Assembly (NCBI GenBank): GCA_023379025.1
Contig: JAMCTH010000007.1
Span: 1-63,128, forward strand
DNA: 63,128 nt
Source of the DNA: Patescibacteria group bacterium
GTDB lineage: Bacteria; Patescibacteriota; Microgenomatia; UBA10105; UBA927
Reading direction: 5' to 3'
Made by a program: the position numbers and the translations under genes. Below the pieces are notes generated by a model, which saw only the letters and a list, made by a program, of their open reading frames with translations, was not told the origin of the DNA and made no database searches. This document shows positions 9,305-51,465 of this stretch, one piece after another. Every line of letters starts with the position of its first letter. Within the stretch, counting starts at the first letter, position 1.

Positions 9305-11131
9305 TCAACTTCCCACTAAGTGGACAAGCGGCTCGATTTTTACGTTCCGATCAATTCCCCATACAGGACTATTAAAAGTTTTTGAGCGCAGGAGCTTCCC
9401 GTTCAGGATTTCTCCAATCTCCCGGGCGGAATACCGTTGTACGTTTTCGAAAATCCGGACGGTCGGATGGTCGAAGACCTGGATGCTTTCCTCCGCTGTG
9501 TCATCGTTGACCGTCAATCCGAGGAAACTGGGGTATGAAGTGAAATCGGCAACGTCACGGTAGCCCAGGGAGCCCGCCAGGAGGAGCCGATACATGGTAC
9601 TCGTCAGCGGATATTTTTCCGTAAGCCGCGGCATGACGGCCCAGATACGCCGGGTGGAGAGGATAATAACATCGCCGTTTGCGAACCGGTCAGCGTAGTA
9701 CGCGAGCTTCTGCGGCGTGTCCGGATCATAAACCGTCAAAAGGTCCCGATTATAGGGGACCGGCGCCATGTCCTGAATCGTAACCGGCAATCCGTCGTTC
9801 CAGTGTTCAGTATAGATTGTCGCGTTGGGCCGGATATGCGTATAAATCCATCGGCTTGCTTCGATACGGGTTTGCGGGCGGATATAGATGGTCCAGTTGG
9901 CCAGTCCCCACCAAGTGTGAAATAAGCCGATAAGCAAATAAACAAATAATCCAACAGGTAAATACGGACGTTTTTTGGAGAGCTTAGCGTATATTTCCAC
10001 AAGAAGCCACGCGGCAGCAATCGTCACGAAGGGTAAAAACGGTACGGTATACCGGTCAAATTTCGTAAACCACGAGCCGACGTATGTGCCGTAGAGAAGG
10101 GGAAAGGCCAGAAATATTCCGAGCCACGGATTTTTTTTACAAAGAAACCGGAGGATGAGCGCCGCAAGCCCGATAAGGCCCAGGACCGGAATGATATCCG
10201 CCTGCCAAAGCATGGTTCTGAACTGGTAGAGATACGGGAGTGTCCCCGTAAACTGGAGCGTATACGGGACAGACGCCGTCCCGAGCGCAACGCCGCTTTC
10301 ATAGCGCATGGACCGGGTAAATCCGTTCCAGTCCAAAAACGTGTAGGGCGACACGACGGTGAACACCATGATTCCCGTCAGAAGGGTCACGAGCATCGGA
10401 AACAGCAGTAACCGGACGTTTTTACCGCGGATTGCCGTCAGGAGGTACGCAACGAAGGGTATCGCAAGATAGGAGACGGCGATCGTTTTGGAGCCGGCAG
10501 CAATACCGATGATGCCTCCGGCAACCAGGGCAGTCCGGATGAGCCGTTTATCCCGGAGAAGCCGCACGGGCCTCATGGCCGAAAGAAGGAGGAGGAGAAA
10601 AAAGACAAGCATGGTTTCCGTCGTGGAAAAATGTGCCTGCTGGACTGCCCACGGTGAGACGGCAATGATAGCCGCCGCAACCAGGCCGACGGCGGGAGAA
10701 AAGTACGCGGCGCCGACAAACGCGATAAGGAGGATACTGACTGAGGACATGACTGCAGAAACGGTGCGGCCGAGGACCGCGATATGCCCCCAGTCGGTCG
10801 TCCATGACGGGTTATGCGTAAGGGCGGAGACGGCATCGGCTATGATGCGGTAGAGGTAGATCGGAAATCCCCCGTAGGCAAAAAATTCCGGATTCATATG
10901 ATCCCAAAATCGAATCCGGGTAACAGCCCAGGAAATGTTGCGCTCATCAGGATGGAACGCATGAAACTGATCCCAGTTGCTATTGGTGAAGCGAAGCATT
11001 GTGCCGACGAAAACAATACCGGCAAGAAGCGGCCACGTTTTTTGAAAAGCCCGGCAGAGGTCGGTTTGAACAGAGTTCCGGACGATCCGCCGGAGAGCGG
11101 AGCTTAGTAGTTTCTTTTTCCCGTGAACCAT
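9305..11131 (-). CDS. GT-C-fold glycosyltransferase-like membrane protein (PMT_2/ArnT-like)
   Basis: Polytopic membrane protein with an early-loop acidic motif, FHAFHPDERNISWAV. The start is taken at M13 (MVHGKKK), 5 nt after the upstream stop. The track ORF start at 11167 would overlap the upstream gene by 32 nt. Confidence 0.72.
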   Translation of the reverse strand: MVHGKKKLLSSALRRIVRNSVQTDLCRAFQKTWPLLAGIVFVGTMLRFTNSNWDQFHAFHPDERNISWAVTRIRFWDHMNPEFFAYGGFPIYLYRIIADAVSALTHNPSWTTDWGHIAVLGRTVSAVMSSVSILLIAFVGAAYFSPAVGLVAAAIIAVSPWAVQQAHFSTTETMLVFFLLLLLSAMRPVRLLRDKRLIRTALVAGGIIGIAAGSKTIAVSYLAIPFVAYLLTAIRGKNVRLLLFPMLVTLLTGIMVFTVVSPYTFLDWNGFTRSMRYESGVALGTASVPYTLQFTGTLPYLYQFRTMLWQADIIPVLGLIGLAALILRFLCKKNPWLGIFLAFPLLYGTYVGSWFTKFDRYTVPFLPFVTIAAAWLLVEIYAKLSKKRPYLPVGLFVYLLIGLFHTWWGLANWTIYIRPQTRIEASRWIYTHIRPNATIYTEHWNDGLPVTIQDMAPVPYNRDLLTVYDPDTPQKLAYYADRFANGDVIILSTRRIWAVMPRLTEKYPLTSTMYRLLLAGSLGYRDVADFTSYPSFLGLTVNDDTAEESIQVFDHPTVRIFENVQRYSAREIGEILNGKLLRSKTFNSPVWGIDRNVKIEPLVHLVGS

Positions 11132-11135
11132 ACCA

Positions 11136-12407
11136 TTAGCGTGCTGCGTCAATTGCACGTGCTGCATTCTTTCCTAATTCTACCGCATAGTTCGTTCCGC
11201 GGTCCCAGGGGTAGATACTGTCAAGATTGGCGAGGAAAATCCCCGGAATCGGGGTAGCCAGGGTCGGCGCCCTACGGGAATAGTGCAGTTCGTGCACCGG
11301 CTGGGCGGCATAGCCGATAAACCGATGCATGGATACGACGCTCGTTTCGGAAAACCGGGGAGTAAGCCGCTTGAGGGACGGGACATATGCCCGAAACAGC
11401 TGTTGTGCGCTTACGGAGAGGAGCGGGTGGTCCTGCGGGAGGTAATTGCCGACGTAGGTTATGTGGTGATTGCCGTAGTGACGTTTATCGATGAAGTTCG
11501 TGTGCGCGACGACCGCAAGGAACGGATAGGAACGGTCCGTGATGTTGAGCCAATAGGTGCGTCTCATGATGGGCTGTTTGGTCTCAAGTACGAGCGTGAC
11601 CGCATGAAGATGCGGTATGGGAGTTGGGTATGAGAGTGGCAGAAGGCGAGCTGCAATTGCAGTCGGAACCGTAAGGAGGATACGGTCAGCCGTATGTCGT
11701 CCGTTACGGTTGGTCGTGAGGATAAATGATCCGGACCGTTTCTCCGGGAAAACCTTCGTAACGACACAATTGGCCGAGATGACTCCTCCTGAAGATTGGA
11801 TCCTGCGTTCAAGCGTATTGATGAGCGTTTGAAATCCTCCCGAGAGGTACATAAGCCGTGATGTGCGTTTATGGATCCGTGCCCAGAACCATGAGGCGGC
11901 GACCAGATTGCTGTATCCGCCGAATTTTCCCTGCAGAAGCGGTTCCCAGATGACCCGCCAGGCTTCGTTGCCTCCGACAATCCTGATGAGCGACTGGGCG
12001 CTCAGTGACTCAAGCGGCTGCCAGAACGGGTTCAGTTTCAGCAACCCAAGAAGGAGGGCGGTGCGGACTTTATCGACCGGGGAGAGCGCGGGAAACAGAA
12101 GGAGGTGACGTCCGGAGTCGAGCTGGTACGGCAGGTCATGCCAGAGGGTAGCAGTGACCGGCCGTTTCAGGATAATTTTTTCGGAGAGACCAATATCCCG
12201 AAGGAGCGTGAGCATCGCACGATCGTTGGTAAACCAATGATGATAGGACTGTTCGAGCGGCCAACTCCAATTGGCTTCCTTAAACCCTGCCGCAAGGCCC
12301 CCGAGCACTGCATTTTTTTCAAAAAGCATGACGGAGTGGCCCTTTCCGGTGAGCTCATATGCGGCACTCAGGCCGGTCATGCCGCCGCCGATGATCGCGA
12401 TGCGCAT
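11136..12407 (-). CDS. NAD(P)/FAD-dependent oxidoreductase (amine-oxidase / UDP-galactopyranose-mutase-like Rossmann fold)
   Basis: N-terminal dinucleotide fold MRIAIIGGGMTGLSAAYELTGKGHSVMLFEKNAVLGGLA. SYHHWFTND resembles the HxFHTND string of Glf. This is a family-level call only. Confidence 0.8.
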   Translation of the reverse strand: MRIAIIGGGMTGLSAAYELTGKGHSVMLFEKNAVLGGLAAGFKEANWSWPLEQSYHHWFTNDRAMLTLLRDIGLSEKIILKRPVTATLWHDLPYQLDSGRHLLLFPALSPVDKVRTALLLGLLKLNPFWQPLESLSAQSLIRIVGGNEAWRVIWEPLLQGKFGGYSNLVAASWFWARIHKRTSRLMYLSGGFQTLINTLERRIQSSGGVISANCVVTKVFPEKRSGSFILTTNRNGRHTADRILLTVPTAIAARLLPLSYPTPIPHLHAVTLVLETKQPIMRRTYWLNITDRSYPFLAVVAHTNFIDKRHYGNHHITYVGNYLPQDHPLLSVSAQQLFRAYVPSLKRLTPRFSETSVVSMHRFIGYAAQPVHELHYSRRAPTLATPIPGIFLANLDSIYPWDRGTNYAVELGKNAARAIDAAR

Positions 12408-12479: not shown

Positions 12480-14828
12480 ATGGGTTCCGACGTGGTTTCA
12501 GTGATCCGATGGTGGGGCGCGCTCTTTTTGATCGGCGCTGCGGCATATCCTCTGACCAGGCGGCTTTTTTCGGACAGGGAGGTCTGGCCTGACGGCGGAT
12601 ATTTTTTTTCGAAAGCCGCCGGCATGGCAGCCGTGACCTTCCTGGTTTACGTATTCGGTACGCTCCATCTTTTCCCGTTTACCCTCATGACGGTCCTTTT
12701 TGCGGTTGCTTCGGTATTTCTTTTCGGGAATCTGCTATCGCTGGGCACCAGGTCGGGTAAACGGGAGTCCCATGAGTTATTCCGGGCGGCCGGCAGAATT
12801 TTCGGTGAAGAAGTGTTTTTTCTCTCGGCCCTTCTTTTCTGGACCTGGATCAAGGCGCACGAACCCAGTATCCATGGTTTGGAAAAATTCATGGATTTCG
12901 GATTTACGAAATCCATTCTTGATAGCAGATACTTCCCCCCGCGTGATATGTGGTACGCGGGATTTCCCATGAATTACTATTACTTCGGCCACATGGGTAT
13001 GGCGACCCTGACGCGGCTGTCAGGACTTCCCCTGACGGTTACGTTTAATCTCATGCTCGCGTCCCTCTTTGCCCTGACGATGACCATGAGTTTTGCGATA
13101 GGGAGCATGCTCCAGCGCCTCCGGTCCCGGCAGGATGCAGCCCCCCGCCGCGGCATTCTGACGTTTATCGGGGGTGTGCTGACGGGGTTTCTCGTAACGC
13201 TTGCCGGGAATATGCAGACGATATACGCATTTACCCGCGGCTACAGCGGCGATCAGGTGAAGCCCTTTTGGCAGCTCCTGTGGCCGCTTGGTCAGTTCTT
13301 CCAAAAGCTTCCCGAAGGGCTCAGCCGGTATTGGTATGCCGATGCCACGCGGTTTATCCCCTATACAATCCATGAGTTTCCGAGCTACTCGTTCGTTGTC
13401 TCCGATGTCCACGGGCACGTTCTGTCGCTCCCGTTCGTTCTTCTGGCAATTGCGCTCATCCTGACCATGACGCTTGGCCGGGGGAGTCGGGAAGAGGAAA
13501 AACAGCGCGCGCGGTATCGTTCCTTCCGGGACATCGCCAACCACCTTCCTGCCTTTGTGTCTTCCCGTATGCGGTTTATCTTCTACGGGTTCTTGGCTGC
13601 TGTACTTCTGATGACCAATGCCCTGGACGGGCCCATCTATGTCGGGCTGCTGTGTATCGTGATGTTGGCCGAATATATCGTGGTGTACCGAAGTAAGCGC
13701 CAATCACCGGCGTCACTTCTCGGCGCGTTTCTCCTCATGGGTGGTGCCGCCGCGGCATCCAGCATGCCGTTCCTTTTTCATTTTTCCTCCTTCGTACACG
13801 GTCTGGCCGTCAATTGTCCTCCGGCAGCGCTCGCCAATACGCATATCGGGCCCCTGCTGTTTGAAGGAGTTGAGAAATGCCAGCATTCACCGCTCTGGAT
13901 GCTCATGCTGTTATGGGGGTTTTTTGTGTTTTGCGGGGTGAGCCTCATGATTGCCGCGGCACCGCGGTCATCGGACCGCCCGAGGCACGGATCCGTCTGG
14001 GAACGCATTCCCGTATGGTTTCGCGAAATACCTCCGGTCGAGCGGGTATTGATCGTATTTTTCTTTTTTGCGCTTCTTCTCATCCTGTTTCCGGAGTTTT
14101 TTTACTTTAAGGACATCTATCCCATGCATTTCCGCAGTAATACGATGTTTAAGCTCGGATATCAGGCGTTTATCCTGTTTTCGATCGTCAGCGGGTACGC
14201 GATCGTGACCATCATGACCGGAGGCAGACGCAATAGCCCGCGGCAGGCCGGATTGGGCAGGGCAGGGAAAACGGTCTTTACCGTCTTCCTGATCCCGCAG
14301 CTTTTTCTTGTGTCTCTCTATCCCATGTTCAGCGTCCGGAGCTATTTTGACAGTCTCAGAACCTATCGGGGGATTGAGGGGATGGGGTGGATGCGGGAAG
14401 AATATCCCGATGATTATGCCGCGGTCACCTGGCTCAATACCCATGCAACCTGCGATGCCGCCCGTTCTGCCTGCGCCCACCCGCCGGTACTCGTGGAAGC
14501 AGACGGGGACAGTTACACGGATTTTGCCCGGTTTTCCGCGTTTACCGGAATTCCCGCCGTTATCGGATGGCCGGTACATGAATGGTTATGGCGCGGCAGT
14601 TATGACGCGGTTGCTCCGCGCCGGCAGGATGTGACGACAATATATCAAAGTCCGAACCTTGCCGTAACGCGTACGCTTCTTGCAAAATACCGCGTGACCT
14701 ATGTCATTGTCGGAACGCTGGAACGCCGGAAATATCTGCCGCTTGAAGAGTGGAAATTTGCGGCACTCGGAACCCCGGTGTTTCATGCCGGTTTGACGGA
14801 TGTGTACCGCATTTCGGGAGAATACTAG
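12480..14828 (+). CDS. DUF2298 / 'Chlor_Arch_YYY' family polytopic membrane protein
   Basis: The diagnostic motif is PMNYYYFGHMG, with many TM segments. The start is reassigned to the ATG at 12480 (MGSDVVSVIRWWG) because the track's upstream extension overlaps the opposite-strand oxidoreductase. Confidence 0.75.
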   Translation: MGSDVVSVIRWWGALFLIGAAAYPLTRRLFSDREVWPDGGYFFSKAAGMAAVTFLVYVFGTLHLFPFTLMTVLFAVASVFLFGNLLSLGTRSGKRESHELFRAAGRIFGEEVFFLSALLFWTWIKAHEPSIHGLEKFMDFGFTKSILDSRYFPPRDMWYAGFPMNYYYFGHMGMATLTRLSGLPLTVTFNLMLASLFALTMTMSFAIGSMLQRLRSRQDAAPRRGILTFIGGVLTGFLVTLAGNMQTIYAFTRGYSGDQVKPFWQLLWPLGQFFQKLPEGLSRYWYADATRFIPYTIHEFPSYSFVVSDVHGHVLSLPFVLLAIALILTMTLGRGSREEEKQRARYRSFRDIANHLPAFVSSRMRFIFYGFLAAVLLMTNALDGPIYVGLLCIVMLAEYIVVYRSKRQSPASLLGAFLLMGGAAAASSMPFLFHFSSFVHGLAVNCPPAALANTHIGPLLFEGVEKCQHSPLWMLMLLWGFFVFCGVSLMIAAAPRSSDRPRHGSVWERIPVWFREIPPVERVLIVFFFFALLLILFPEFFYFKDIYPMHFRSNTMFKLGYQAFILFSIVSGYAIVTIMTGGRRNSPRQAGLGRAGKTVFTVFLIPQLFLVSLYPMFSVRSYFDSLRTYRGIEGMGWMREEYPDDYAAVTWLNTHATCDAARSACAHPPVLVEADGDSYTDFARFSAFTGIPAVIGWPVHEWLWRGSYDAVAPRRQDVTTIYQSPNLAVTRTLLAKYRVTYVIVGTLERRKYLPLEEWKFAALGTPVFHAGLTDVYRISGEY

Positions 14829-18233: not shown

Positions 18234-19526
18234 TTATGATTGTTTGAGAAAATGCAGAACCTGAATATTGAAAAATGGTACGAAATAAATGGTAGTACCT
18301 TCAAACGCTATCTCCTGCGTCAAACTAAGATTGACAATATATGCTTTTAAAACTTTATACTTGGTTAAAAAGGATCTAAAAGAGCGGCTTAGTTCGGGCT
18401 TCTTTAATGTTGCATATTTAACCTCTATAGGTATAACTTCTCCGGCTGTATGTAAAACAAAATCAACTTCCGCCCTGTCCTTGGTTCTCCAAAAATGAAT
18501 ACCGGCAGGCGTGAGCTTGAGGTCTTCTTTTAAAGTATTGAAAACGAAATTTTGAAACAAAAATCCGGCGGACTCATGAGCGATAGTGCCGAATTGATTG
18601 ACTGCGAAGTTGCGAAGCCCCGCATCAACAAAATAGTAGACCGGACTTTTGGTTATCTCTTTTCTGGTATTTTTGAAATACGGCGTAACTTTGCTGATCA
18701 TGTATGTTTTTTCCAGATACCACAAGTACTGTTTCACGGTCTGAACCGAAATTCCGAGCGTATTGGAAAGCTCCGTCAAATGAACGATATTTCCGATTTG
18801 AGAAGCAAGAATTCTGAGTAAAGCGGTGAGACTCTCCGTTTTTTTCAGCCTTAATAGAATGGACATATCTTTCTCTAAGAAACTTTGATAAATATCAGCA
18901 ATTATCGCTCTTTTTTCTTCAACCGCGGGGGCGAGCACTACTTTTGGATATCCTCCGAACGTCAAATACTCATCCAGCAGGGAGGACAACATTTCTCTAT
19001 GAAATTCAAACCCTGTACGTGCCGATGCCGTCAGATCAGTAAAATCAGGATAAAACCGAGATTCGGTTGAAGTGTCATGTTTATAATTTACAAACTCTTC
19101 AAAGCTTATCGTTGAGAGTTCAAAAAGTCTTTTTCTGCCCGGTAATGACTCATGGATTTTTTCTCTTAATTCAAGGCTTCCTGAACCTGAAACAATGAAC
19201 TTATAGGGCAGCTTTTTATCATACAGCCCCTTCAAAAATAATCCGGCATTCTCTTTTCTTTGTATTTCGTCAATGAAAACATATCCTTTTTCATGCCCCA
19301 GTTCATAAGAAATCCGCTGCAACAGTTTCTCTTGAGATTCAAAAAACGGAAGATCCGTAGTGAAGTCAAGATTTAAAAAGATGGTTTTAGCGCCGCTCTT
19401 TTTCAGATCGTCCCTCATGATTTCCATGAGCGTCGTTTTACCGGCCTGACGGGGACCGACGATAAGTGTAATCTCCGGGTTCGGGAGATGGGTTTGCAAT
19501 TGTTTTAACAAAAGCCTGCGTATCAT
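18234..19526 (-). CDS. AAA+ ATPase with C-terminal DUF4143 (COG1373-type)
   Basis: Walker A GPRQAGKTTLME and Walker B-like GYVFIDEIQ, with the typical 430-aa length and layout. It is visibly AT-rich relative to its flanks and ends 12 nt from the tRNA-Ala 3' end. Confidence 0.85.
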   Translation of the reverse strand: MIRRLLLKQLQTHLPNPEITLIVGPRQAGKTTLMEIMRDDLKKSGAKTIFLNLDFTTDLPFFESQEKLLQRISYELGHEKGYVFIDEIQRKENAGLFLKGLYDKKLPYKFIVSGSGSLELREKIHESLPGRKRLFELSTISFEEFVNYKHDTSTESRFYPDFTDLTASARTGFEFHREMLSSLLDEYLTFGGYPKVVLAPAVEEKRAIIADIYQSFLEKDMSILLRLKKTESLTALLRILASQIGNIVHLTELSNTLGISVQTVKQYLWYLEKTYMISKVTPYFKNTRKEITKSPVYYFVDAGLRNFAVNQFGTIAHESAGFLFQNFVFNTLKEDLKLTPAGIHFWRTKDRAEVDFVLHTAGEVIPIEVKYATLKKPELSRSFRSFLTKYKVLKAYIVNLSLTQEIAFEGTTIYFVPFFNIQVLHFLKQS

Positions 19527-26973: not shown

Positions 26974-26989
26974 GCCTCCTATGGTAGCA

Positions 26990-27053: not shown

Positions 27054-27079
27054 GTGATGCGTTACTTCGTTACTTCGCA

Positions 27080-33358: not shown

Positions 33359-33361
33359 AAC

Positions 33362-33397: not shown

Positions 33398-33445
33398 GAA
33401 CTTCATTCTTGTACTCCGGGCTGATCTCGATTACGATAGAGAACT

Positions 33446-37931: not shown

Positions 37932-37959
37932 TTGACACAAACCAATACAATTGTATAAT
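37932..37959 (+). promoter_or_regulatory. Consensus sigma70 promoter of vapBC (leaderless-type)
   Basis: TTGACA (37932-37937), a 16-nt spacer, TATAAT (37954-37959), then 10 nt to the ATG at 37970. Confidence 0.6.
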
Positions 37960-37969
37960 AGTATTATAT

Positions 37970-38221
37970 ATGAACTACGTGACTACCAACATCCGTTTCC
38001 CTGAAGACATCTATCTGGCGCTCAAGGAAGAAGCAGCCAAAAAAAGACTCAGTCTCTCCGCAGTAGTCCGCGAGAAAGTCGGAGCGGGCGATACACGCCG
38101 TTCGAAAGCGGAAATGACACGGTTAACCTCTCGGCTTGACACGACGGCGAAAGCACTCGGCGATAAGCTTAAAGGCTTTGACGCGGCGCGAGCGATCAGA
38201 AAGATGCGCGAAGAGCTATGA
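37970..38221 (+). CDS. vapB: Ribbon-helix-helix antitoxin (VapB/CopG-like)
   Basis: MNYVTTNIRFPEDIYLALKEEAAKKRLSLSAVVREKV is a typical RHH N-terminus. Its ATGA stop overlaps the start of the PIN gene. Confidence 0.7.
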   Translation: MNYVTTNIRFPEDIYLALKEEAAKKRLSLSAVVREKVGAGDTRRSKAEMTRLTSRLDTTAKALGDKLKGFDAARAIRKMREEL

Positions 38222-38622
38222 TTGTCGTTGACGCCTCAGTAGTCTACAAGTGGGTTGTTGATGAACAGGATGAAGCAACCCGTCGGGCAGTAAAGCTCCG
38301 TAATACCTACCTTGCAAAACGGGAAAAGGTCGTGGCACCCGACATCCTCCTCTACGAAATAGGCAACATTTTTGCGTATAAAACCAAACTTTCGCCAAAG
38401 GATATCTCAAAAGCGTGGCAAAGTTTTTTACTCCTGGATATTCCTACGGTATCCGCTACGGCGTCGTTTATTACCGGTTGCCTTACCGTTTCCCGCAAAT
38501 ATGCCATATCCGTGTACGATGCCGCGTACGTGGAACTCGCGCGGGAAAAAAAGTGCAGGTTAATCACTGCCGATACCGTGTTGGTTAAACGGGTCCATCA
38601 GCCGTTCGTCAGGTCACTGTAG
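38218..38622 (+). CDS. vapC: PIN-domain toxin VapC
   Basis: MIVVDASVVYKWV... (first acidic residue), ...LLYEIGN..., ...VYDAAYVELAREKKCRLITAD. The length of 134 aa is typical. Confidence 0.85.
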   Translation: MIVVDASVVYKWVVDEQDEATRRAVKLRNTYLAKREKVVAPDILLYEIGNIFAYKTKLSPKDISKAWQSFLLLDIPTVSATASFITGCLTVSRKYAISVYDAAYVELAREKKCRLITADTVLVKRVHQPFVRSL

Positions 38623-43654: not shown

Positions 43655-45184
43655 ATGACTACCCGAACCCTCTCCACCCTTTGCGTCGTCCTGTGCGTTT
43701 TGGGAAGCGGCCTCGTTTTGGGCGATCTTCTCCGGTGGCACCGGACGCTCGGCCTTGTCCGCTTTTTCGATGCGGATGAGTTTGCCTACCTCCACTGGGC
43801 GGCGCATATGGCGGCGGGCCGGGTGCCGTACCGGGATTTTTTCCTGTTCGTGCCGCCCGGATTCGGGTGGTTTCTCATGCCGCTCTTTTTCTTCGGTCAT
43901 GGCATCTCCCCCCTTATTGCGGCACGCGTCATGGAATTTGCGGTATTCACCCTTCTGGTCGGGGTGACGATCGGTCTTTTCTGGCTTCTCAGGCGCTCGT
44001 GGCTTGCCCTCCTCGCCGGAGTGTTCCTTGCGTTCCTGCCTCTCCCGTTTGATAAATTTATTGAGGTACGTCCGGATACGCTTGCGGCGCTTCTCGTGAC
44101 GGGCGGGATAGTGGGCGAGATTCTCTGGATGCGGGAGAAGGGCGCGCGGTACGGAGTCCTGGCCGGGGTCCTCTATGCGGCATCACTCATAGTACTGCCG
44201 AAGACACTGCCGGGTGTCGTTGTGGGAGTCGGGATTGCAGCCGGATCTGCGATGGGGAGAGGGGAGGATGGGAAGAGGGGAGAGGGGAAACGCATGGTTC
44301 GGATGCTTGCGGCGCCGGCCCTCGGGTTCCTCCTCCCGCTTCTTATGTTTGGCGTTTGGTGCCTTTCCGTCGGGAACCTTCCGCTTGTTCTCTATTCAAT
44401 CTTCCGGCTGCCTTTTGAAGTCAATGAAATAAGCCGGACCTTTGTCATGATGCCGGACCTGTTCTTTTACCCCAATGCGGTCTATTTCGGCGCCGGCGGG
44501 TGGGGGGAGGCGCTTCTTGTCAACCATGCCCTATGGATGGCAGGACTCGTTTTTGGGTTGTACCGGCTCCTGACGCCGGTACTGACGCGGGGAAAAACGT
44601 ATCTTTGGGAAGAACTTCTTCTTGCTCTAAACTTCCTGGCACTCGTCTTTTTTTACGTGGAGTTTATCCCGCTGAAGCACGCGCAATACCTCATCCCCAT
44701 AGCCGTGTTTGTCGCATGGTATTCGGCAGATATGCTGGACAGTCTCTGGCAGAAGATGAAGAGAAGTACCGCCGGAATTGTGGTTTTTGGCGTTGCGGCG
44801 CTCGGGCTCCTCGGGCTCCTCTATTCGGTGAATGCGGCGGCCGAGCAGCCGAAGCTGGCCGGAACAAACACACAAAACCTTACTGCGCTTGCCGTGCTGT
44901 ACCGGACCCTTCCCCGCGCGACGCCGGTTCTGGATCTGGTCGGCAGCATGCTGTATTACCCCGATCCGTACTATGCCTGCTGTCTCCCGATAGGGCAGTT
45001 TGCGGCCTATCTGTCGCGGCCCCTTCCGCCGCTTGCGGCGGCGCTTGAGAGGGAAAAGGTGCCATATATATATCAGGGAGAACCCGGCCGCGTATCGACG
45101 CTCCTCCCGGCCGATCAGGAATATATACGCCTACACTACCATCCGGTGGCCGATGGCGACCCGGCGCTCCTCGTACGTCACTGA
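43655..45184 (+). CDS. GT-C-fold glycosyltransferase-like membrane protein (ArnT/PMT_2-like)
   Basis: Motif FFDADEFAYLHWAAHMAAGRVPYRDFFLF. It is a paralogue of 25516-26973. Confidence 0.8.
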   Translation: MTTRTLSTLCVVLCVLGSGLVLGDLLRWHRTLGLVRFFDADEFAYLHWAAHMAAGRVPYRDFFLFVPPGFGWFLMPLFFFGHGISPLIAARVMEFAVFTLLVGVTIGLFWLLRRSWLALLAGVFLAFLPLPFDKFIEVRPDTLAALLVTGGIVGEILWMREKGARYGVLAGVLYAASLIVLPKTLPGVVVGVGIAAGSAMGRGEDGKRGEGKRMVRMLAAPALGFLLPLLMFGVWCLSVGNLPLVLYSIFRLPFEVNEISRTFVMMPDLFFYPNAVYFGAGGWGEALLVNHALWMAGLVFGLYRLLTPVLTRGKTYLWEELLLALNFLALVFFYVEFIPLKHAQYLIPIAVFVAWYSADMLDSLWQKMKRSTAGIVVFGVAALGLLGLLYSVNAAAEQPKLAGTNTQNLTALAVLYRTLPRATPVLDLVGSMLYYPDPYYACCLPIGQFAAYLSRPLPPLAAALEREKVPYIYQGEPGRVSTLLPADQEYIRLHYHPVADGDPALLVRH

Positions 45185-45230: not shown

Positions 45231-45956
45231 ATGAAGGGTAGAACTGATATTTCCCTTGTCCTTCCCTGTTACAACGAAGAGAAGCTGTTCCGGGACAGTG
45301 TCGGCCGGATTATCGAGACGCTCGATCGCCTCCCGTACCGGTGGGAGATATTGTTTGTCGATGACGGAAGTCACGATAATACTCCGGCGCTTATCCGGGC
45401 AGTCTGTACAAAGGACCGCCGCTGCCGGGCTATTTATCACCCGTTCAATGTTGGACGGGGAAAAACGGTTGCGGACGGCATCATCGCGGCGCGGGGAAGG
45501 GTCGCCGGATACATAGATATAGACCTTGAGGTTTCCCCGATCTATATCGCGGAGATGGTGGCTCCGATCCTTGCGGGAAAGACCGACAGTACCGTCGGAA
45601 AACGGATCTACCGGACTGCGGTACCTTCCCTGTTCCGGGAAATCCTGAGCCGCGGATACCGGCGGCTCGCGGATCTGGTGATTGCTACGGGCGGCATAGA
45701 CACTGAATCCGGGTATAAATTCTTTAATCGAAAAAAGATTGTACCCATTTTATCGCTTGCCGCACACCCGCATTGGTTCTGGGATACGGAAATCATCGTC
45801 TATGCGCTGAGGAACCGTCTCCGGATTACCGAAATACCGGTCCTTTTTTCGCGGCGGACGGACAAGCAATCATCCGTCCGGCTTCTTCCTGATCTGCTGG
45901 ATTACGGGAAAAGCCTGTGGATGTTCCGGAGAAAACTGGCAAAAAGCAGAACATAA
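45231..45956 (+). CDS. GT2 polyprenyl-phosphate glycosyltransferase (DPM1/GtrB/ArnC-like)
   Basis: ISLVLPCYNEE...ILFVDDGSHDNT...VGRGKTVADG. It is a short, 241-aa soluble GT-A protein. Confidence 0.85.
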   Translation: MKGRTDISLVLPCYNEEKLFRDSVGRIIETLDRLPYRWEILFVDDGSHDNTPALIRAVCTKDRRCRAIYHPFNVGRGKTVADGIIAARGRVAGYIDIDLEVSPIYIAEMVAPILAGKTDSTVGKRIYRTAVPSLFREILSRGYRRLADLVIATGGIDTESGYKFFNRKKIVPILSLAAHPHWFWDTEIIVYALRNRLRITEIPVLFSRRTDKQSSVRLLPDLLDYGKSLWMFRRKLAKSRT

Positions 45957-45992: not shown

Positions 45993-46532
45993 ATGAATAC
46001 CGTGAAAACTATCGGGATAGAAAAAGCCATACGGTTTCTCTGGACCAGCGTCTATGCAGGACTCGTTTCCGTTTCGTTGCTTCCGCCTCTCCGGGCGGTG
46101 CTCCTCAGGTTTGCGGGAGCGGCGGTCGGCGCTGATACCGTGCTTTTGCAGGTCCGCTTCGCCAATCTCTACCACTACGGGTTCCGGAAACTCACGATCG
46201 GGAAACGGTGTTTTTTGGGCGATGACGTCATGCTCGATGTCCGGGGCGGCATCCGCCTCGGGGACGACGTGACCCTTTCGAGCCGGGTCTCAATCGTCAC
46301 GCATATAAACGTCGGATACCCAAATCACCCGCTTCAAAAATACTATCCGACCAGGGAAGCGCCTGTCGTCATCGGGGACGGCTCATATATCGGTACCGGC
46401 GCCATTCTCCTGCCCGGAGTCCGTATCGGGAACATGAGTATCGTCGGCGCCGGCGCGGTCGTCACCCGCGACGTTGCGGAGAGAACCGTTGTGGCCGGCG
46501 TGCCGGCAAGAAGGATTAAGGTTCTCAGGTGA
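45993..46532 (+). CDS. Hexapeptide-repeat (LbH) acetyltransferase
   Basis: Left-handed beta-helix repeats: IRLGDDVTLSSRVSIVTH...VVIGDGSYIGTGAILLPGVRIGNMSIVGAGAVVTRDV. Confidence 0.85.
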   Translation: MNTVKTIGIEKAIRFLWTSVYAGLVSVSLLPPLRAVLLRFAGAAVGADTVLLQVRFANLYHYGFRKLTIGKRCFLGDDVMLDVRGGIRLGDDVTLSSRVSIVTHINVGYPNHPLQKYYPTREAPVVIGDGSYIGTGAILLPGVRIGNMSIVGAGAVVTRDVAERTVVAGVPARRIKVLR

Positions 46533-46561
46533 CGCCGGTGACGTCAGTACTCTCTCTATAT

Positions 46562-47908
46562 ATGTATATCCCTCTTACCAAACCATATTGGGGGAAAGCC
46601 GAAGAACGGGCGGCCGTTGAGGCCCTACGGCACTCGAGCGGCGCCGGCGACGGATCGTACACGAAACAGCTTGCGGGGAAGCTCACGAAGCTTACGGGCA
46701 TGAGGTACGCCATCCCCGTGACCTCCTGTACCCATGGCCTCGAGCTTGCGATGGCGGCCCTCGGGATCGGGCCGGGAGACGAGGTGATCGTGCCGAGCTT
46801 TACCATGACGTCAACTGCCAACTGCGTGGTACTCCGTGGGGCTACACCCGTTTTTGCGGATATCGAACCGCTCACGTATGGCCTGTCGGTTGGTGATGTA
46901 GCGCGGCGGATCACCGAACGGACGAAAGGGGTGATCTTCGTGCCGTATGCCGGTATGCCGGGCGATATACGGGCCATCCGGGCGCTCTGCCGGGAGAGAG
47001 GGTTATTTTTGGTTGAGGATGCGGCGCATGCGATCGGCGCCTATGACCGCGGGAAACACCTCGGCACTTTCGGGGACATCGGCGTCTTCTCGTTCCACGG
47101 GACCAAAAACGTGAGCTGCGGCGAGGGGGGAGCGGTCGTGACCGACCGGAAAGATCTCTATGATACTATGGAGATCTACCGGGCCAACGGGACGAACCGT
47201 ACCGCGTTTCTTGCCGGTATTGTGGATAAATACAGTTGGGTCGGGAAAGGTACTAGTTATTTCCTTTCCGATATATTAGCGAATATTGTATCGGCACAAC
47301 TGGATCACATTACCACGATAAATAAAAAAAGAAATCAAATTGCTCTCTATTACTCCAAACAGCTTCAGCATTACGCAGGTCTGTTCGATCTGCCGCGGGT
47401 GCCGCCGGGCGCACAGCCGAACTGGCACATTTATGCCGTCCTTTTTAAGAAAAAAACACACCGCGATCTCTTCCTCCGGGAAATGAGGAAGCGGGGAATT
47501 GACGCGGCCTACCATTACGTGCCGCTCCATAGTTCGAGGATGGGAAGGAAACTGGCTGGGTCGATTTTTGATCAAGGACAATTATCATGCGCGGCGCGGC
47601 GAGCTTTTCCGAGCACCGTCACTGCGCCGGAAACCGGAAAGCGGCGGGTCCTGTCTCGGTTTTTCCCCCAAGAAAACCCACAAGGGGACCCCTTCTTGGG
47701 GGTCCCCCGAACCGAGCCACCCGCCGTACCAGCGCCTGACGGATGCGCAGCAAAAAGTGAGCCGCGCGAAGCGCCGTGTCCTGCCCTGCCAGTAACTGAT
47801 TTTGTTTGGGAGCGGCTCGTCCGGCTCCCGATCTACCCGGGACTGACGAGTAAGCAGCTGCAGTATGTCGTCCAACAGGTGCGGGAGACCCTGCAGGCAT
47901 ATATATAA
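46562..47908 (+). CDS. DegT/DnrJ/EryC1/StrS-family sugar aminotransferase (ArnB-like) with a roughly 70-aa insert
   Basis: MYIPLTKPYWGKAEERAAVEAL, VTSCTHGLELA, FSFHGTKN (PLP lysine context), AYHYVPLH. A GTG at 46529 is an alternative start. The foldback repeat accounts for the insert before the LPIYPGLT motif. Confidence 0.85.
   Translation: MYIPLTKPYWGKAEERAAVEALRHSSGAGDGSYTKQLAGKLTKLTGMRYAIPVTSCTHGLELAMAALGIGPGDEVIVPSFTMTSTANCVVLRGATPVFADIEPLTYGLSVGDVARRITERTKGVIFVPYAGMPGDIRAIRALCRERGLFLVEDAAHAIGAYDRGKHLGTFGDIGVFSFHGTKNVSCGEGGAVVTDRKDLYDTMEIYRANGTNRTAFLAGIVDKYSWVGKGTSYFLSDILANIVSAQLDHITTINKKRNQIALYYSKQLQHYAGLFDLPRVPPGAQPNWHIYAVLFKKKTHRDLFLREMRKRGIDAAYHYVPLHSSRMGRKLAGSIFDQGQLSCAARRAFPSTVTAPETGKRRVLSRFFPQENPQGDPFLGVPRTEPPAVPAPDGCAAKSEPREAPCPALPVTDFVWERLVRLPIYPGLTSKQLQYVVQQVRETLQAYI
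47589..47770. repeat. About 180-nt GC-rich foldback element inserted in frame in the aminotransferase gene (copy 2, opposite orientation)
   Basis: Core TTCCCCCAAGAAAACCCACAAGGGGACCCCTTCTTGGGGGTCCCCC (47664-47708) is the reverse complement of the 35670-35715 core with a few substitutions. Flanking arm similarity extends about 70 nt on each side. Confidence 0.85.
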
Positions 47909-47928: not shown

Positions 47929-48381
47929 TTGCCCGTCACCGGAGAGACAATGTCGAGTATTGAAGATAAGATACCGGAGCTCATCCATGCTGCAGCCGAA
48001 GCACGGCGTATCGGATTTTTTGCATCCCTTGCCGAGAGGCTTCTTCCCCGGACGTTTACCGTCGTCGGATCCGGTGAAGTGACGGATATTCTTGCTGTAC
48101 CGGCTGCGGATGTAGCATGCATCACTGTCGGGGAAGCAAGCAACCCCCTGCAGGTCCGTTTTATCGTGCCGATAGGTGATGCAGCGCGGTATGAGACCGG
48201 TCAGCGTTATGCGATCGTGAGGCAAGACACCCGTGCGGTACTGGCGCAGGGAATTGTGCTTGAGACTCATCTGTCCGTCGGTCCGGCGGCCTTCCTGGAA
48301 AAAGGGGCGGCGTTTGACGAATCGGAGCTTGTCTATGCGTTTCCGACGTATGAGCTACCGGAGGATACCACGGAAGGATAG
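47929..48381 (+). CDS. Hypothetical protein (150 aa) within the sugar-modification operon
   Basis: Clean ORF tightly packed between the aminotransferase and GT2 genes. No motif was recognised. An alternative start, MSSIEDK, lies at 47950. Confidence 0.5.
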   Translation: MPVTGETMSSIEDKIPELIHAAAEARRIGFFASLAERLLPRTFTVVGSGEVTDILAVPAADVACITVGEASNPLQVRFIVPIGDAARYETGQRYAIVRQDTRAVLAQGIVLETHLSVGPAAFLEKGAAFDESELVYAFPTYELPEDTTEG

Positions 48382-48384
48382 GTT

Positions 48385-49440
48385 ATGAGACCATTGCTGT
48401 CACTTATCATTCCCTATCACAACAGTTCGGAAACGATCGGAAGGCTTTTGGCGTCGATCGCGCGGTCGAAGACCGCTCCTGCCTATGAGGTGATCGTTGT
48501 CGACGACGGATCTGAGAAGAATGCTACATGTCCGATGCCAAATGCCAAATTAAAAAAGAAATTGACTGATTTTCGGATCATCACTCTTCTAGAGAACCGC
48601 GGGCCGGCGGCGGCGAGAAACCGGGGAGCGGCGAACGCACGGGGGAAGGTTCTCCTCTTCCTCGACAGTGATGTCGTACTGTTTCCTGATACGCTGAACA
48701 ATTTGGCACGGATTTACCGGGAGGATCCGGACGTGGTTGCGGTCACGGGGGTGTGGGCCAAAGAACAGCGTACGAAGGCATTTTTCCCCAATTTCAAAGC
48801 GCTCCGGGACTGGAGCTACTGGGTGAACGAGCGGGAACTCGGCAGCTACTACTACCTGTTTTCGACCCGCATCGCCTCCATCAAAAGGGCCGTATTCCTG
48901 CGCCTCGGGGGATTTGACGAAAGCTACCACGCCGCGCTCGTTGAGGATATCGAGTTTACCTACCGGATTGCCCGGCGCTACGCGGTCCTGTTTGCCCCGG
49001 ACGTCCGCGTGCGGCATGAGTTTGAAGGCTTCTGGCCGGTCGCCCAAAAATATTTCCGGCGCAGCTACCACTGGACCAAACTGTTCATGGACCGGAGGCG
49101 GTTTGATTCCGTTGCGGCAACCGGCAAGGAAGCCGCCGCAACGCTTTCTGCCGCGGCCCTCGCCGTTCTCGTGCCGATGCGGGTCCTGACGTTTTTCCTT
49201 CTGCCGCACAGTTTTCTCTGCTTCAGGGCTCCGGGTCTCTACCTTTCGTTCTGCACGGGCAGTATGCTGCAGTGGCTGGTCATTGCGGTGCTGGTGATCC
49301 ACCTCCTGTTTGTCCGTAAGTTTCTGTGGTTTGCGGCGCGGGAGCGGGGGATAGTGTTTGCGTTCCAAAGCTTCCTGACCGGCATTGTCCTCTACTGTTT
49401 TATCTTTGCGGGCGCCGTCGCCGGGCGGGTGGGGAAATAA
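48385..49440 (+). CDS. GT2 family glycosyltransferase with C-terminal TM segments
   Basis: LSLIIPYHNSSE...VIVVDDGSEKN...ENRGPAAARNRGA...LFLDSDVV, with a hydrophobic C-terminus. Confidence 0.85.
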   Translation: MRPLLSLIIPYHNSSETIGRLLASIARSKTAPAYEVIVVDDGSEKNATCPMPNAKLKKKLTDFRIITLLENRGPAAARNRGAANARGKVLLFLDSDVVLFPDTLNNLARIYREDPDVVAVTGVWAKEQRTKAFFPNFKALRDWSYWVNERELGSYYYLFSTRIASIKRAVFLRLGGFDESYHAALVEDIEFTYRIARRYAVLFAPDVRVRHEFEGFWPVAQKYFRRSYHWTKLFMDRRRFDSVAATGKEAAATLSAAALAVLVPMRVLTFFLLPHSFLCFRAPGLYLSFCTGSMLQWLVIAVLVIHLLFVRKFLWFAARERGIVFAFQSFLTGIVLYCFIFAGAVAGRVGK

Positions 49441-49449
49441 CGGGCGGCG

Positions 49450-51465
49450 TCAGTGCGGCGGCGCAGGCGCGGGGCTTGCCGGAACAACGAGTTCCGGGTA
49501 GCCGGTCGGCCGGGTGAGGATGTCGAGCGGGTTGACGCCGCCGCGTGTGCCGGCGGCGGTCGCTGAGGCCATGGCGGCAAGCGCCGTCTTTTCTCCGGGG
49601 GAAAGTTTGGCCGTCACCCCGGCGAGCAGGCTGCCCGCAGTTTTGGCGTCGGCCGTATCCTTCCCGACGTGCGCCACCGTCTCCCGGAGCGCAATTGCCG
49701 CGCGGAGGTAATCTTTTTTCTGCTCATAGGCGTAGGCCAGGTTGTAATACGCGTTGGCGTAGTCGGGTTTGAGGTTGACGGCGGCCAGAAACTGCGAAAC
49801 GGCCGCATCATTATTGCCCTGGCGGGTGTAGATGCCGCCGAGCGTAAGCCTGAGCCGGGGATTAGCCGGGTCGAGGGTGATCGCTTTCTCATAGGATGCG
49901 ATACTCCACTGCTCTGCGCCGTCGGTATAGGCCGACAGCGTATCGTACAGGGCGCCGAGATTTTCCCACGCCGTAACCCACCGGGGTTCGAGTGAGGTCG
50001 CGACTTTTCCCTCCCGGATTGCCTGCTGGGTCAGGGTAGTCAGGGTCTTTTTTTCCGCATCGGTGAAGGAGGCTCCGGGCGAGGCGGTCCCGGCGTTTTT
50101 TTGGTCCGCGGACAGGAGATTTTGGGCCAGAAGCAGGTTCAGCCTGCTGAAACTCAGGTGGTACTGGGTCCGGAACGGGCTCATTTCGATAGCCCGGAGG
50201 AGGTAGTTATAGGTTTTCACGTTCTTTGCGTCGGCTGCCCGGAGGGCGCGGTAATAAAGGGTTTCGCCGGCGTAGTAGCGCCCGAGAAGGAACAGGAGCC
50301 CCGCCGAAAGAAGGACTACCGCTCCCGCCGCTCCCGCCGCGGCGTGCCGGGACAAAGCCGGCATACGGACGGCAGGTGGCTCCGCCTCTCCGCGGTCGCC
50401 GGAGAGGAGCAGCAGTTCGGCGAGGAGGACGATCTGGATGATTGAAGGCGGAAGGATGAGGAGCGACAGCCCGGCGGCGGCCAGGGCGGCTGCGAGGCCG
50501 GTTTCGGTGAGGCTTCGTTGGCGCCGGCTGAACAAAGGCCGCACTGAAGCCCAGATGATGATCAGGACACCGGCAATACCGGGGATGCCGGTCGTTGTCC
50601 CGATGTGGAACAGGAAGGAATTGGCCGACGTAAACCGCGTGTTCCAGAGCGGCGTCAGATTGAGGCTGACGGGCCGGCCCGCAGTAAATGCCGAGAGGTA
50701 GTTGCCCGGCCCGACGCCGAGCAGCAGGTGCTCCGCCCCTTTATAGGAATCCATGAGGATGCTCCAGCCGTCCGCCGCGGGAAGCACGGTCGCGGGGATA
50801 TGCGGGATGATGCCGGCCGCGGTGAGCGCGAGCCCCGCGGCAATGATGGCCGTCCCGAGAGCCAGGAAGCCGGTGCGCGCCCAGTCCCTTTTGCGGATTT
50901 GCGCAAGCGTTTCCGCGGCGATTGCCGGAAGGATCACGATGAGGAGCGTGATCAGGGCAAGCGAACTGCCGGCGGGGGTAAAGAGCGGATTCGTGAGGGC
51001 GGGAACAGCCGGGAATACCATGCGCCCCAAGCCGATAGCGCCGTAGACGGCGATGATGCCGGATACCGCGGCGGCCAGGTAGAGCGCCCACCGGAGGAGG
51101 GTCCTGCTTTGTTCCGTAAGGAAGGCGGGAGCCAGGGCGAGCACTGCCGTTGCCGCAACGAGCGTCAGGGGTCCGAACGGTGCGGCGGCAGACTCGGGCG
51201 TATCCGCGGAGACCACAAGCGTGGAAAGAACGGAGGAGACGGTCAGGACGGCAAACCCGGCAAGCCCCGCACCGCGTCCGACGGCCAGGGCGCGTTTTTT
51301 TAGAGCGATGAGCGACCAGAGGATCGTCAGGAAGACCGCGGTAACAAGAAGGAGTACCCACTTATTGAACCCATAGAAATCCTCGGTAAACGGCAGGGCA
51401 AAGAGCGGAAATACCGCGGCAAAGCAGATAAGATACCATCGGGCGGCGGAAAGCATTCGGTGCAT
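49450..51465 (-). CDS. O-antigen ligase-like (Wzy_C) polytopic protein fused to C-terminal TPR repeats
   Basis: Wzy_C-like loop NTRFTSANSFLFHIGTTTGIPGIAGVLIIIW. TPR segments include DPANPRLRLTLGGIYTRQGNNDAAVSQFLAAVNLKPDYANAYYNLAYAYEQKKDY. Confidence 0.8.
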   Translation of the reverse strand: MHRMLSAARWYLICFAAVFPLFALPFTEDFYGFNKWVLLLVTAVFLTILWSLIALKKRALAVGRGAGLAGFAVLTVSSVLSTLVVSADTPESAAAPFGPLTLVAATAVLALAPAFLTEQSRTLLRWALYLAAAVSGIIAVYGAIGLGRMVFPAVPALTNPLFTPAGSSLALITLLIVILPAIAAETLAQIRKRDWARTGFLALGTAIIAAGLALTAAGIIPHIPATVLPAADGWSILMDSYKGAEHLLLGVGPGNYLSAFTAGRPVSLNLTPLWNTRFTSANSFLFHIGTTTGIPGIAGVLIIIWASVRPLFSRRQRSLTETGLAAALAAAGLSLLILPPSIIQIVLLAELLLLSGDRGEAEPPAVRMPALSRHAAAGAAGAVVLLSAGLLFLLGRYYAGETLYYRALRAADAKNVKTYNYLLRAIEMSPFRTQYHLSFSRLNLLLAQNLLSADQKNAGTASPGASFTDAEKKTLTTLTQQAIREGKVATSLEPRWVTAWENLGALYDTLSAYTDGAEQWSIASYEKAITLDPANPRLRLTLGGIYTRQGNNDAAVSQFLAAVNLKPDYANAYYNLAYAYEQKKDYLRAAIALRETVAHVGKDTADAKTAGSLLAGVTAKLSPGEKTALAAMASATAAGTRGGVNPLDILTRPTGYPELVVPASPAPAPPH

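Follow-up and report, generated by a model that had tools for sequence, protein, structure and literature searches.

Glycosylation systems that combine a GT-A-fold polyprenyl-phosphate-sugar synthase, a flippase and a GT-C-fold glycosyltransferase are known, and some of their GT-C enzymes carry carbohydrate-binding domains (PMC8035078); in streptococci, PgfS and PgfM1 act in protein O-glycosylation (PMC5856776; doi 10.1101/2024.05.05.592596). Here we analyze a 63,128-nucleotide (nt) stretch of contig JAMCTH010000007.1 (assembly GCA_023379025.1; hereafter the window) from a Gottesmanbacteria-type groundwater bacterium of the Patescibacteria, or candidate phyla radiation (CPR), in which positions 9305–51465 encode a dense set of large polytopic membrane proteins. 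We conclude that this interval is probably a lineage-conserved envelope-glycosylation island, that is, an expanded multi-component transmembrane glycosylation system. CPR bacteria have very small genomes and a presumed lifestyle of attachment to other cells, and their envelope chemistry is almost unstudied. The components, glycosyltransferases of family 2 (GT2) and GT-Cs, are already known; what appears to be new is their scale, their conservation in one neighbourhood of genomes of 1.1–1.2 Mb, and a GT-C family that lacks annotation. Within the open-access full-text library that we searched, nothing linked CPR, Patescibacteria or Gottesmanbacteria with such GT-C glycosyltransferase clusters.

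The interval contains 14 uninterrupted open reading frames (ORFs) for polytopic membrane proteins of 468–840 amino acids (aa), each with 8–14 hydrophobic segments in a hydropathy scan (Table 1; genes are named by their first coordinate). Together they cover 25,884 nt, or 41.0% of the 63-kb window and 61% of the interval, in agreement with the 25.7 kb and 41% that an earlier note, made from the letters alone, had given for 13 GT-C-like proteins and one TPR protein. They represent 14 of the approximately 33 genes of the interval; by our own estimate rather than by computation, only a few percent of bacterial genes encode proteins of at least 450 aa with at least eight transmembrane segments, so the density lies far above chance. 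The concentration, previously called exceptional, is therefore real, but it is a trait of the lineage, as relatives carry 7–10 such genes per 21 kb. All-against-all BLASTP and hhalign comparisons revealed one four-member family (27080, 28676, 30207, 41874) and one pair (25516, 43655); because the other membrane proteins are mutually unrelated in sequence, the 14 proteins comprise at least ten sequence families. An independently assembled Logan contig (SRR10278331_814) matches the region from 25516 to 35052 at 99.7–100% identity, so the arrangement does not result from mis-assembly. A single contiguous operon was ruled out, given at least eight transcription units in alternating orientation with unrelated genes in between.

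Multi-component systems of Gram-positive bacteria (CsbB/GtcA/YfhO, GtlA/GtlB and the Csd pairs; PMC8035078) resemble this locus in placing a GT-A/GT2 enzyme akin to polyprenyl-phosphate sugar synthases beside YfhO- and PMT_2-type GT-Cs, in an acidic motif in the first loop, and in having one GT-C with a carbohydrate-binding domain. They differ in using one GT-A per GT-C, with a handful of such systems per genome, whereas here 13 GT-Cs of at least nine families and two GT2s share one neighbourhood of a genome of about 1.1–1.2 Mb, and the island has no adjacent GtrA-type flippase gene. The Pgf operon of Streptococcus mutans (PgfS, PgfM1, PgfE, PgfM2; PMC5856776) likewise pairs a GT2 with YfhO-like GT-Cs and acts on Ser/Thr-rich regions of surface proteins; in contrast to the island, it contains two GT-Cs instead of 13, the island proteins score far under the Pgf equivalog cutoffs, and the window holds no epimerase.

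Table 1 Features of the island and its right flank (TM1, first transmembrane segment; bit scores are given against the model cutoff)
Feature	Coordinates	Strand	Evidence
PMT_2-type GT-C, 620 aa, 'HPDER' after TM1	9305–11167	-	Pfam PMT_2, 32.1 vs 26.1 bits
FAD-dependent amine-oxidase-like oxidoreductase, between two GT-C genes	11136–12407	-	Pfam Amino_oxidase 4.5e-29; PRK07233, 373.8 vs 252 bits
DUF2298/Chlor_Arch_YYY membrane protein, ~782 aa, 14 hydrophobic segments	12480–14828	+	Pfam DUF2298 (PF10060) 1.3e-93, 315 vs 27.8 bits
Diverged YfhO-type GT-C, 840 aa	20315–22837	-	YfhO in 27 of 56 homologues
Polytopic membrane domain (aa 1–460) with C-terminal NPCBM/CBM51	22850–24673	-	NPCBM 1.5e-27, 96.7 vs 23.9 bits
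Conserved protein with a single transmembrane segment	24682–25365	-	No Pfam match; orthologues 33–50% identical
PMT_2-type GT-C, 485 aa, 'DADEF' motif	25516–26973	-	Pfam PMT_2, 33.4 vs 26.1 bits; paralogue of 43655
'DYxxYL' family member 1, 528 aa	27080–28666	+	AlphaFold2 and Foldseek, GT-C fold
'DYxxYL' family member 2, 525 aa	28676–30253	-	BLASTP to 27080, 7e-33; hhalign 100%
'DYxxYL' family member 3, 646-aa ORF called as 604 aa	30207–32147	+	BLASTP and hhalign to family
Two S-adenosylmethionine-dependent methyltransferases (33446, 34129), upstream of 35052	33446–35055	+	Methyltransf_23/11 matches
YfhO-type GT-C, 738 aa, 'GDD' after TM1	35052–37268	+	Pfam YfhO (PF09586), 28.6 vs 28.5 bits
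Diverged PMT_2-type GT-C, 468 aa	38614–40020	-	PMT_2 in 26 of 33 homologues
PMT_2-type GT-C, 628 aa	39987–41873	-	Pfam PMT_2, 48.6 vs 26.1 bits
'DYxxYL' family member 4, 567 aa	41874–43577	-	BLASTP 1e-14 to 1e-15 to the others; hhalign 100% vs family profile
PMT_2-like GT-C, 509 aa, 'DADEF' motif	43655–45184	+	Full-length paralogue of 25516, 32% identity, E 3e-44
GT2, 241 aa, no transmembrane segment, polyprenyl-phosphate sugar synthase-like	45231–45956	+	Best PDB relatives ArnC, GtrB (sll0501), DPMS
Hexapeptide-repeat sugar acetyltransferase	45993–46532	+	Hexapep; WcaF and NeuD/PglB/VioB family matches
DegT/WecE-type nucleoside-diphosphate-4-keto-6-deoxyhexose aminotransferase	46529–47908	+	DegT 3e-93
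GT2 with three C-terminal hydrophobic segments (residues 254, 292, 323)	48385–49440	+	Glycos_transf_2 8e-28
Polytopic membrane domain (aa 1–400) with TPR repeats	49450–51465	-	TPR_11 1e-15, 57.4 vs 26.8 bits; other TPR models
Three type IV pilin-like genes, candidate acceptors	51515–53354	+	N_methyl motifs
Giant 2,986-aa ORF, 24% Ser+Thr	54153–63113		Laminin_G_3 and two Gly_rich_2 domains

Family or fold evidence supports 12 of the 13 proposed GT-C proteins, and for the remaining one (22850) the evidence is a motif. The fold evidence comes from the four-member family, whose members are 21–26% identical to each other and share D50-Y51-x-x-Y54-L55 after TM1 (hereafter the 'DYxxYL' family). Sequence searches of Pfam, NCBIfam and the PDB found nothing for it at E ≤ 10, yet AlphaFold2 returned a confident model from the family alignment (pLDDT 93, pTM 0.92). 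In a Foldseek search of the PDB with this model, ranks 1–29 were all GT-C structures (STT3/AglB/PglB, AftA, DPY19, ArnT and AftD; E 2e-9 to 5e-3; TM-score 0.47–0.58), while LeuT-type transporters appeared from rank 30 onward with TM-scores of about 0.1. Both the family grouping and its GT-C interpretation, as proposed in the earlier note, were thus borne out, the predicted fold being that of a GT-C and not of a transporter. Since a predicted GT-C fold coincides with the lack of any library match, 'DYxxYL' is, as judged from the model, a GT-C-fold family absent from current family libraries. It is also large: a 36-sequence profile retrieved 7,170 representatives of 50%-identity clusters at E ≤ 1e-3 (2,395 at E ≤ 1e-30) among 1.84 billion, and the relatives that we sampled are all named 'hypothetical protein' and derive mostly from Gottesmanbacteria or unclassified bacteria, with one from an Anaerolineaceae metagenome-assembled genome (MAG).

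The best structural matches of the 'DYxxYL' model are STT3/AglB/PglB enzymes of family GT66 (E 2e-9, TM-score ~0.55), with which it shares a transmembrane core followed by a C-terminal extracytoplasmic alpha/beta domain. It differs from them in being only 11–15% identical, with no sequence-level match, in lacking WWDYG and in being far smaller (~525 aa). An oligosaccharyltransferase function was rejected, as the WWDYG/WWD motif occurs in none of the four paralogues and no PDB sequence match was found at E ≤ 10. D50, H178/H179 and R346 are candidate catalytic residues.

Most of the remaining proteins were assigned by sequence families. For 9305, 25516, 38614, 39987 and 43655, the ArnT/PMT_2-like label given earlier could be kept: three match Pfam PMT_2 (PF13231) directly, 43655 (no direct Pfam match) belongs through its paralogue, and 38614 (no direct family match) through 33 homologues of 34–58% identity. 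The 9305 protein has 10 hydrophobic segments, and its orthologue lies in the same position in a related locus (L021; 54% identity). The DUF2298 'YYY' label of 12480 also proved sound, with a TIGR03662 (Chlor_Arch_YYY) score of 450.7 bits against a cutoff of 300.25 and a Pfam score that also exceeds its threshold; we take DUF2298 to be a member of the GT-C clan. Although the maximal ORF begins at 12105, the family match starts at about residue 131, so that a start at 12480 is reasonable. The label of 20315, by contrast, had to be replaced: it had been called PTPS_related-like, but neither PTPS_related (PF10131) nor any other Pfam family matched it directly at E ≤ 10, whereas about half of its homologues match YfhO, and one of them is named 'YfhO family protein [Candidatus Gottesmanbacteria bacterium]'. 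Across all families, hhalign detected three weak links only, namely between the 'DYxxYL' family and the C-terminal part of 12480 (92.6% probability), between the 'DYxxYL' and 25516 families (89%), and between the C-termini of 20315 and 35052 (95.9%); it found no link from 22850 or 49450 to any other family.

An acidic D/E motif directly follows TM1 in all 13 GT-C candidates, and the predicted topology would place it in the first loop; 49450 has no such motif. In four aligned families the motif is invariant or nearly so: D50 occurs in at least 90% of the 36 'DYxxYL' sequences, D37 and D40 are invariant in the 20315 family, D37 is invariant in the 38614 family, and E29-A-D31 together with N57-Y-P-x-P-F62 is invariant in seven orthologues of 22850, for which the motif appears GT-C-like. 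The C-terminal domain of the same protein matches CBM51 structures in profile searches (2vmg/2vmh, 7js4).

These assignments bear on a very different reading, in which many of the proteins, whether of GT-C fold or polytopic in another way, are not sugar transferases and serve instead as polymerases or ligases, in lipid-carrier recycling, as transporters or as membrane scaffolds. Seven of the 14 proteins have no direct Pfam or NCBIfam match, two membrane domains could be placed in no family, and neither DUF2298 nor the 'DYxxYL' family has a characterised member. An NCBIfam run on ten of the membrane proteins gave TPR matches only, and PDB sequence searches found no match to the membrane domains of 20315, 38614, 39987 and 49450 as single sequences or of profiles A1, A3, A5 and A6. 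Cluster names in public databases gave no clue either ('hypothetical protein' or 'NPCBM/NEW2 domain-containing protein'). We nevertheless consider such roles less likely, and indeed very improbable, because the one family that was modelled has a clear predicted GT-C fold with a conserved first-loop Asp, the homologues of 20315 and 38614 belong to YfhO and PMT_2, Pfam searches relaxed to E ≤ 10 brought up no transporter family for any of the 14 proteins, and the genes are co-located with GT2 and amino-sugar genes.

The interpretation as a glycosylation island draws further support from related genomes. At least ten related loci share the gene order, among them contigs of 1.09, 1.22 and 1.22 Mb (drawn from ERZ25039479 contig_57221, ERZ25039480 contig_74641 and GCA_023245335.1), with proteins that are 34–65% identical (Rho, 65%); they come from Candidatus Gottesmanbacteria/Patescibacteria genomes of 1.1–1.2 Mb. 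The linkage of these genes, on which the earlier note had staked its interpretation, is therefore kept in relatives and not scattered, and since the order recurs including Rho and an M23 peptidase, it represents a lineage trait and not a one-off. In loci L018 (GCA_023245335.1, a 1.218-Mb contig) and L019 (Hainich groundwater, 89 kb), the genes form one collinear block. It starts with a 48385-like GT2, a hexapeptide acetyltransferase, a 45231-like GT2 and 43655-, 41874-, 39987- and 38614-like genes, continues with a 35052-like YfhO gene, a methyltransferase, a 30207-like gene, a dTDP-sugar isomerase and a 24682-like gene, and ends with a 'DYxxYL' member, a 263–270-aa protein of no known family and a 22850-like NPCBM gene. 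The sub-block of 43655 (GT-C), 45231 (GT2), acetyltransferase, aminotransferase and GT2 is kept in both, with the DegT gene (after the 48385-like GT2) seen in L018 only, as is a second GT2 after the isomerase. After the NPCBM gene of L019 comes a 760-aa gene truncated at the edge of the locus, in the place expected for a 20315 homologue. A 49450-like TPR protein (31% identity) stands at the block end of L019 only, while L018 ends with a methyltransferase and LRR/DUF7282 genes; a metagenome scan returned no relatives of 49450.

The left part of the interval recurs in L021 (1.088-Mb contig), with PIN/TRAM, 9305, 11136, 12480, Rho, M23, 20315, 22850 and 24682 in the same arrangement, followed by fewer GT-C, GT2 and methyltransferase genes than in the window. 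Six Gottesmanbacteria MAGs (L004, L008, L010, L012, L016, L017) contain, whole or in part, a core of 20315, 22850, 24682, 25516, 27080, (28676), 30207, methyltransferase and 35052, and the order 30207-like gene, methyltransferase, YfhO is kept in L004, L008, L012, L016, L018 and L019 (30207 orthologues, 45–60% identical). The content is nonetheless modular: the window is richer in PMT_2 and 'DYxxYL' copies than its relatives, and the DIE2_ALG10 GT-C, the dTDP-sugar isomerase and the second small GT2 of the relatives' clusters were looked for in the window and are absent from it. The DIE2/ALG10-family proteins of relatives (a eukaryote-type GT59 family) measure about 370–400 aa and lie within the cluster (L002, 3622–4737; L010, 3381–4592).

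This modularity would also fit a variable set of alternative and mostly redundant enzymes whose modifications vary the cell surface in defence against phages or hosts, in the manner of the Gtr serotype-converting clusters of Salmonella and Shigella and as opposed to one sequential pathway. Gene content indeed varies, with 13 GT-C genes in the window against about eight in the neighbourhood of L021, with a DIE2_ALG10-type GT-C, an isomerase and extra GT2s confined to relatives, and with toxin-antitoxin, Fic, AAA/DUF4143 and IS200-like genes at positions that differ from genome to genome. Yet most members are one-to-one orthologues in the same order at 34–60% identity, although Rho itself is only 65% identical, which indicates long-term retention and not rapid turnover. 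Neither side of the block carries phage or integrase genes, and no phase-variation repeats were noticed, though no search was aimed at such repeats. We therefore regard surface variation as an unlikely explanation. Paralogues within the window (21–26% identical) are also more diverged than orthologues between genomes (34–52%), from which it follows that the duplications predate the split of the genomes and that the copies were individually retained.

Candidate genes for donor synthesis, which had been proposed to adjoin the GT-C genes, were found within the interval as GT2 45231, acetyltransferase 45993 and aminotransferase 46529. The 45231 protein aligns with ArnC and DPMS over residues 7–218 and with GtrB over residues 5–112 only. 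Its best NCBIfam similarities are to PgfS (62 vs 500 bits), AglJ, ArnC and PpgS, all far under the cutoffs, and at this family level of similarity it is a putative polyprenyl-phosphate sugar synthase. The aminotransferase reaches 354.9 bits with the model for dTDP-4-amino-4,6-dideoxygalactose transaminase, against a cutoff of 375. Its C-terminus is about 80 aa longer than in orthologues and is followed by a 476-nt gap with an unassigned 150-aa ORF (47929–48381); in L018, the aminotransferase directly abuts the GT2, with no gap.

Taken with 43655, these genes recall the Arn pathway (ArnB, ArnC, ArnT), in which a GT-C transfers an amino sugar that has been placed on undecaprenyl phosphate: the locus combines 43655, the ArnC-like 45231, an acyltransferase and a DegT aminotransferase. 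It differs from that pathway in that the aminotransferase is nearest to WecE and not to ArnB, in that homologues of ArnA, ArnD and ArnE/F are missing, and in that this probable monoderm has no lipid A.

From this content, we infer a function in surface glycosylation that would proceed as follows. In the cytoplasm, the WecE-like 46529 and the acetyltransferase 45993 would make an N-acetylated 4-amino-4,6-dideoxyhexose nucleotide sugar, with the methyltransferases 33446 and 34129 as possible sugar-modifying enzymes. The ArnC/GtrB/DPMS-like 45231, perhaps together with the membrane-anchored 48385, would load sugars onto polyprenyl phosphate, and the lipid-linked sugar would be flipped across the membrane by a protein encoded outside the window. 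At the outer face, each of the 13 GT-Cs, which fall into nine or more sequence families, would add a sugar at a specific position of an envelope acceptor. Transfer from a polyprenyl-phosphate-linked donor finds indirect support in the neighbouring ArnC/GtrB-like GT2, as far as similarity of sequence can indicate it. The number, variety and conserved order of the GT-Cs, old and individually kept paralogues among them, together with the CBM51-type fusion, suggest that most GT-Cs act successively and not redundantly on a complex glycan, which might be a wall polymer, a lipoglycan or a protein-linked glycan.

Such division of labour has a precedent in the mycobacterial and corynebacterial assembly of arabinogalactan, lipomannan and lipoarabinomannan (LAM), where Emb, AftA–D, PimE and Mpt use decaprenyl-phospho-arabinofuranose and polyprenyl-phospho-mannose. 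There, too, many different GT-Cs work with few lipid-monophosphate donors towards a complex extracellular polymer, as we propose for the island. The Foldseek matches of the 'DYxxYL' model include AftA and AftD, and 45231, having no transmembrane segment, is PpgS-like in architecture. In contrast, mycobacteria carry these genes at several separate loci, no sequence similarity is detectable, and the CPR bacterium has no known wall of the mycolata type. A bolder version, in which about 8–13 GT-Cs form an assembly line on few polyprenyl-phosphate sugars as an independent counterpart, within a genome of only about 1.1 Mb, of mycobacterial arabinogalactan/LAM synthesis, with 'DYxxYL' as a new backbone-forming family, is put forward only tentatively and strikes us as doubtful. 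If it were true, this product might form the surface by which the cells attach to their hosts.

The nature of the acceptor gives rise to a sub-case of the envelope-glycosylation reading, namely protein O-glycosylation of Ser/Thr/Pro-rich surface proteins such as pilins, giant adhesin-like proteins or an S-layer. Analogues are Pgf/PgtC2 in streptococci, PMT in actinobacteria and TfpW, which acts on the Pseudomonas pilin. Five PMT_2-type enzymes are present, 45231 and 35052 find their best NCBIfam similarities in PgfS and PgfM1, respectively, and three pilin genes lie divergently beside 49450. The first of these (51515–52279) carries a Thr/Pro-rich tract at aa 176–205, PGFTPSYKITPTPTVPTPTPTPMFPPG, followed by a Cys-rich C-terminus; this TPTPTVPTPTPTP tract is a plausible O-glycosylation site. 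Beside the pilins lies the Ser/Thr-rich giant protein with its LamG and Gly-rich domains, and an ORF of 12,315 aa adjoins the cluster in L020. However, the two giant proteins are non-homologous, and the adjacency to pilins is not kept: the 49450 orthologue of L019 lies beside a Fic gene, and the corresponding end of L018 carries the LRR/DUF7282 genes. Moreover, 13 distinct transferases exceed the known protein O-glycosylation systems, the CBM51 fusion suggests that what is recognised is a glycan, and the Pgf scores are far under their cutoffs (for PgfM1, 27 vs 1400 bits). We therefore hold protein acceptors to be a serious possibility, without favouring them. The middle pilin gene occupies two frames, with the N-methylation motif at 52212–52514 and the pilin body at 52399–52845, and thus shows either a frameshift or a sequencing error. 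Two long antisense ORFs (51548–52324 and 52349–52963) were discarded, as the true genes there are the pilins of the plus strand.

Several points weigh against the interpretation of 9305–51465 as an envelope-glycosylation island. The fold-level comparison covers one family, 'DYxxYL'. The YfhO match of 35052 is marginal and limited to the C-terminal 72 residues; the label given to it earlier passes the Pfam cutoff, and its orthologues carry YfhO matches, but it remains borderline. For 22850, previously described as Gpi18-like and fused to NPCBM, the NPCBM half holds, while the membrane domain has no Pfam (E ≤ 10), PDB-profile or hhalign match that would support Gpi18 (PIG-V), and orthologue P0337 matches NPCBM only (E ≤ 1). 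Likewise, the TPR part of the Wzy_C/TPR assignment of 49450 stands, but Pfam detects TPR and no Wzy_C (PF04932) at E ≤ 10, and the same applies to orthologue P0341 (E ≤ 1). An AlphaFold2 model from a three-sequence alignment reached a pLDDT of about 30 over residues 1–404; a conserved loop of this protein, 'GVGxxN...SAxxxFxxxTTxGxxG', loosely resembles the ligase loop and serves as a lead only. The picture of several GT-C families concentrated beside donor genes, pilins and a giant surface protein is thus supported for 12 of 13 proteins, with the PTPS_related, Gpi18 and Wzy_C labels given up. On the donor side, the GT2 assignments score far under the NCBIfam equivalog cutoffs, the PDB matches of 48385 are generic GT2 enzymes, and the window contains no ORF for a GtrA-, Wzx- or SMR-type flippase, nor a small or Wzx-like polytopic ORF beyond the 14 large genes; a flippase gene may lie in another part of the genome. 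Genes for Rho, Fic, an M23/LysM peptidase, an AAA/DUF4143 ATPase, a PIN toxin-antitoxin pair and the two methyltransferases likewise lie in the interval, as do two tRNA-Ala genes; with Rho, the peptidase and the tRNAs inside the island, neighbourhood alone is no proof of one pathway. Finally, we know of no acceptor or glycan described for any CPR bacterium of this lineage.

Even so, the lineage keeps 8–13 GT-C genes in one neighbourhood, which here amounts to about 26 kb or roughly 2% of a 1.1–1.2-Mb genome, and such a share implies that extracytoplasmic glycosylation is probably central to its biology. The locus should inform both the study of CPR envelopes and the classification of GT-Cs, although it introduces no new principle and its function is deduced. 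It offers two targets in particular, i.e., a large GT-C family that has no database model yet a confident predicted structure, and a membrane protein fused to CBM51.

Among the accessory genes, 24682 may encode an accessory or acceptor-binding subunit. Its orthologues (205–250 aa) adjoin the NPCBM gene in L002, L004–L006, L010, L017, L020 and L021, and lie near but separated from it in L012, L016, L018 and L019. The oxidoreductase gene 11136 sits between the PMT_2 gene and the DUF2298 gene both here and in L021, a linkage that would be consistent with a part in the glycosylation system.

Genes of selfish or defence type are dispersed through the window, comprising AAA and DUF4143 (in a patch of 42% G+C), Fic, the PIN toxin-antitoxin pair and an IS200-like Y1 transposase (18234–19526, 32270–33370, 37877–38622 and 53383–54060); in relatives, PIN, YafQ and HicAB modules occur at other positions of the same cluster. 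At the left end of the window lies the 3' part of a 23S gene (1–2064) with a LAGLIDADG endonuclease ORF inside it (367–1194). A 1.3-kb spacer, which holds an ORF for a 23S_rRNA_IVP four-helix bundle (2271–2633), precedes the 5S gene (3402–3518), and a ParE/Phd toxin-antitoxin pair (3734–4247) follows it. The rRNA operon is thus split, with its 5S gene unlinked from the 23S gene, and a split arrangement with an intervening endonuclease is typical of CPR bacteria.

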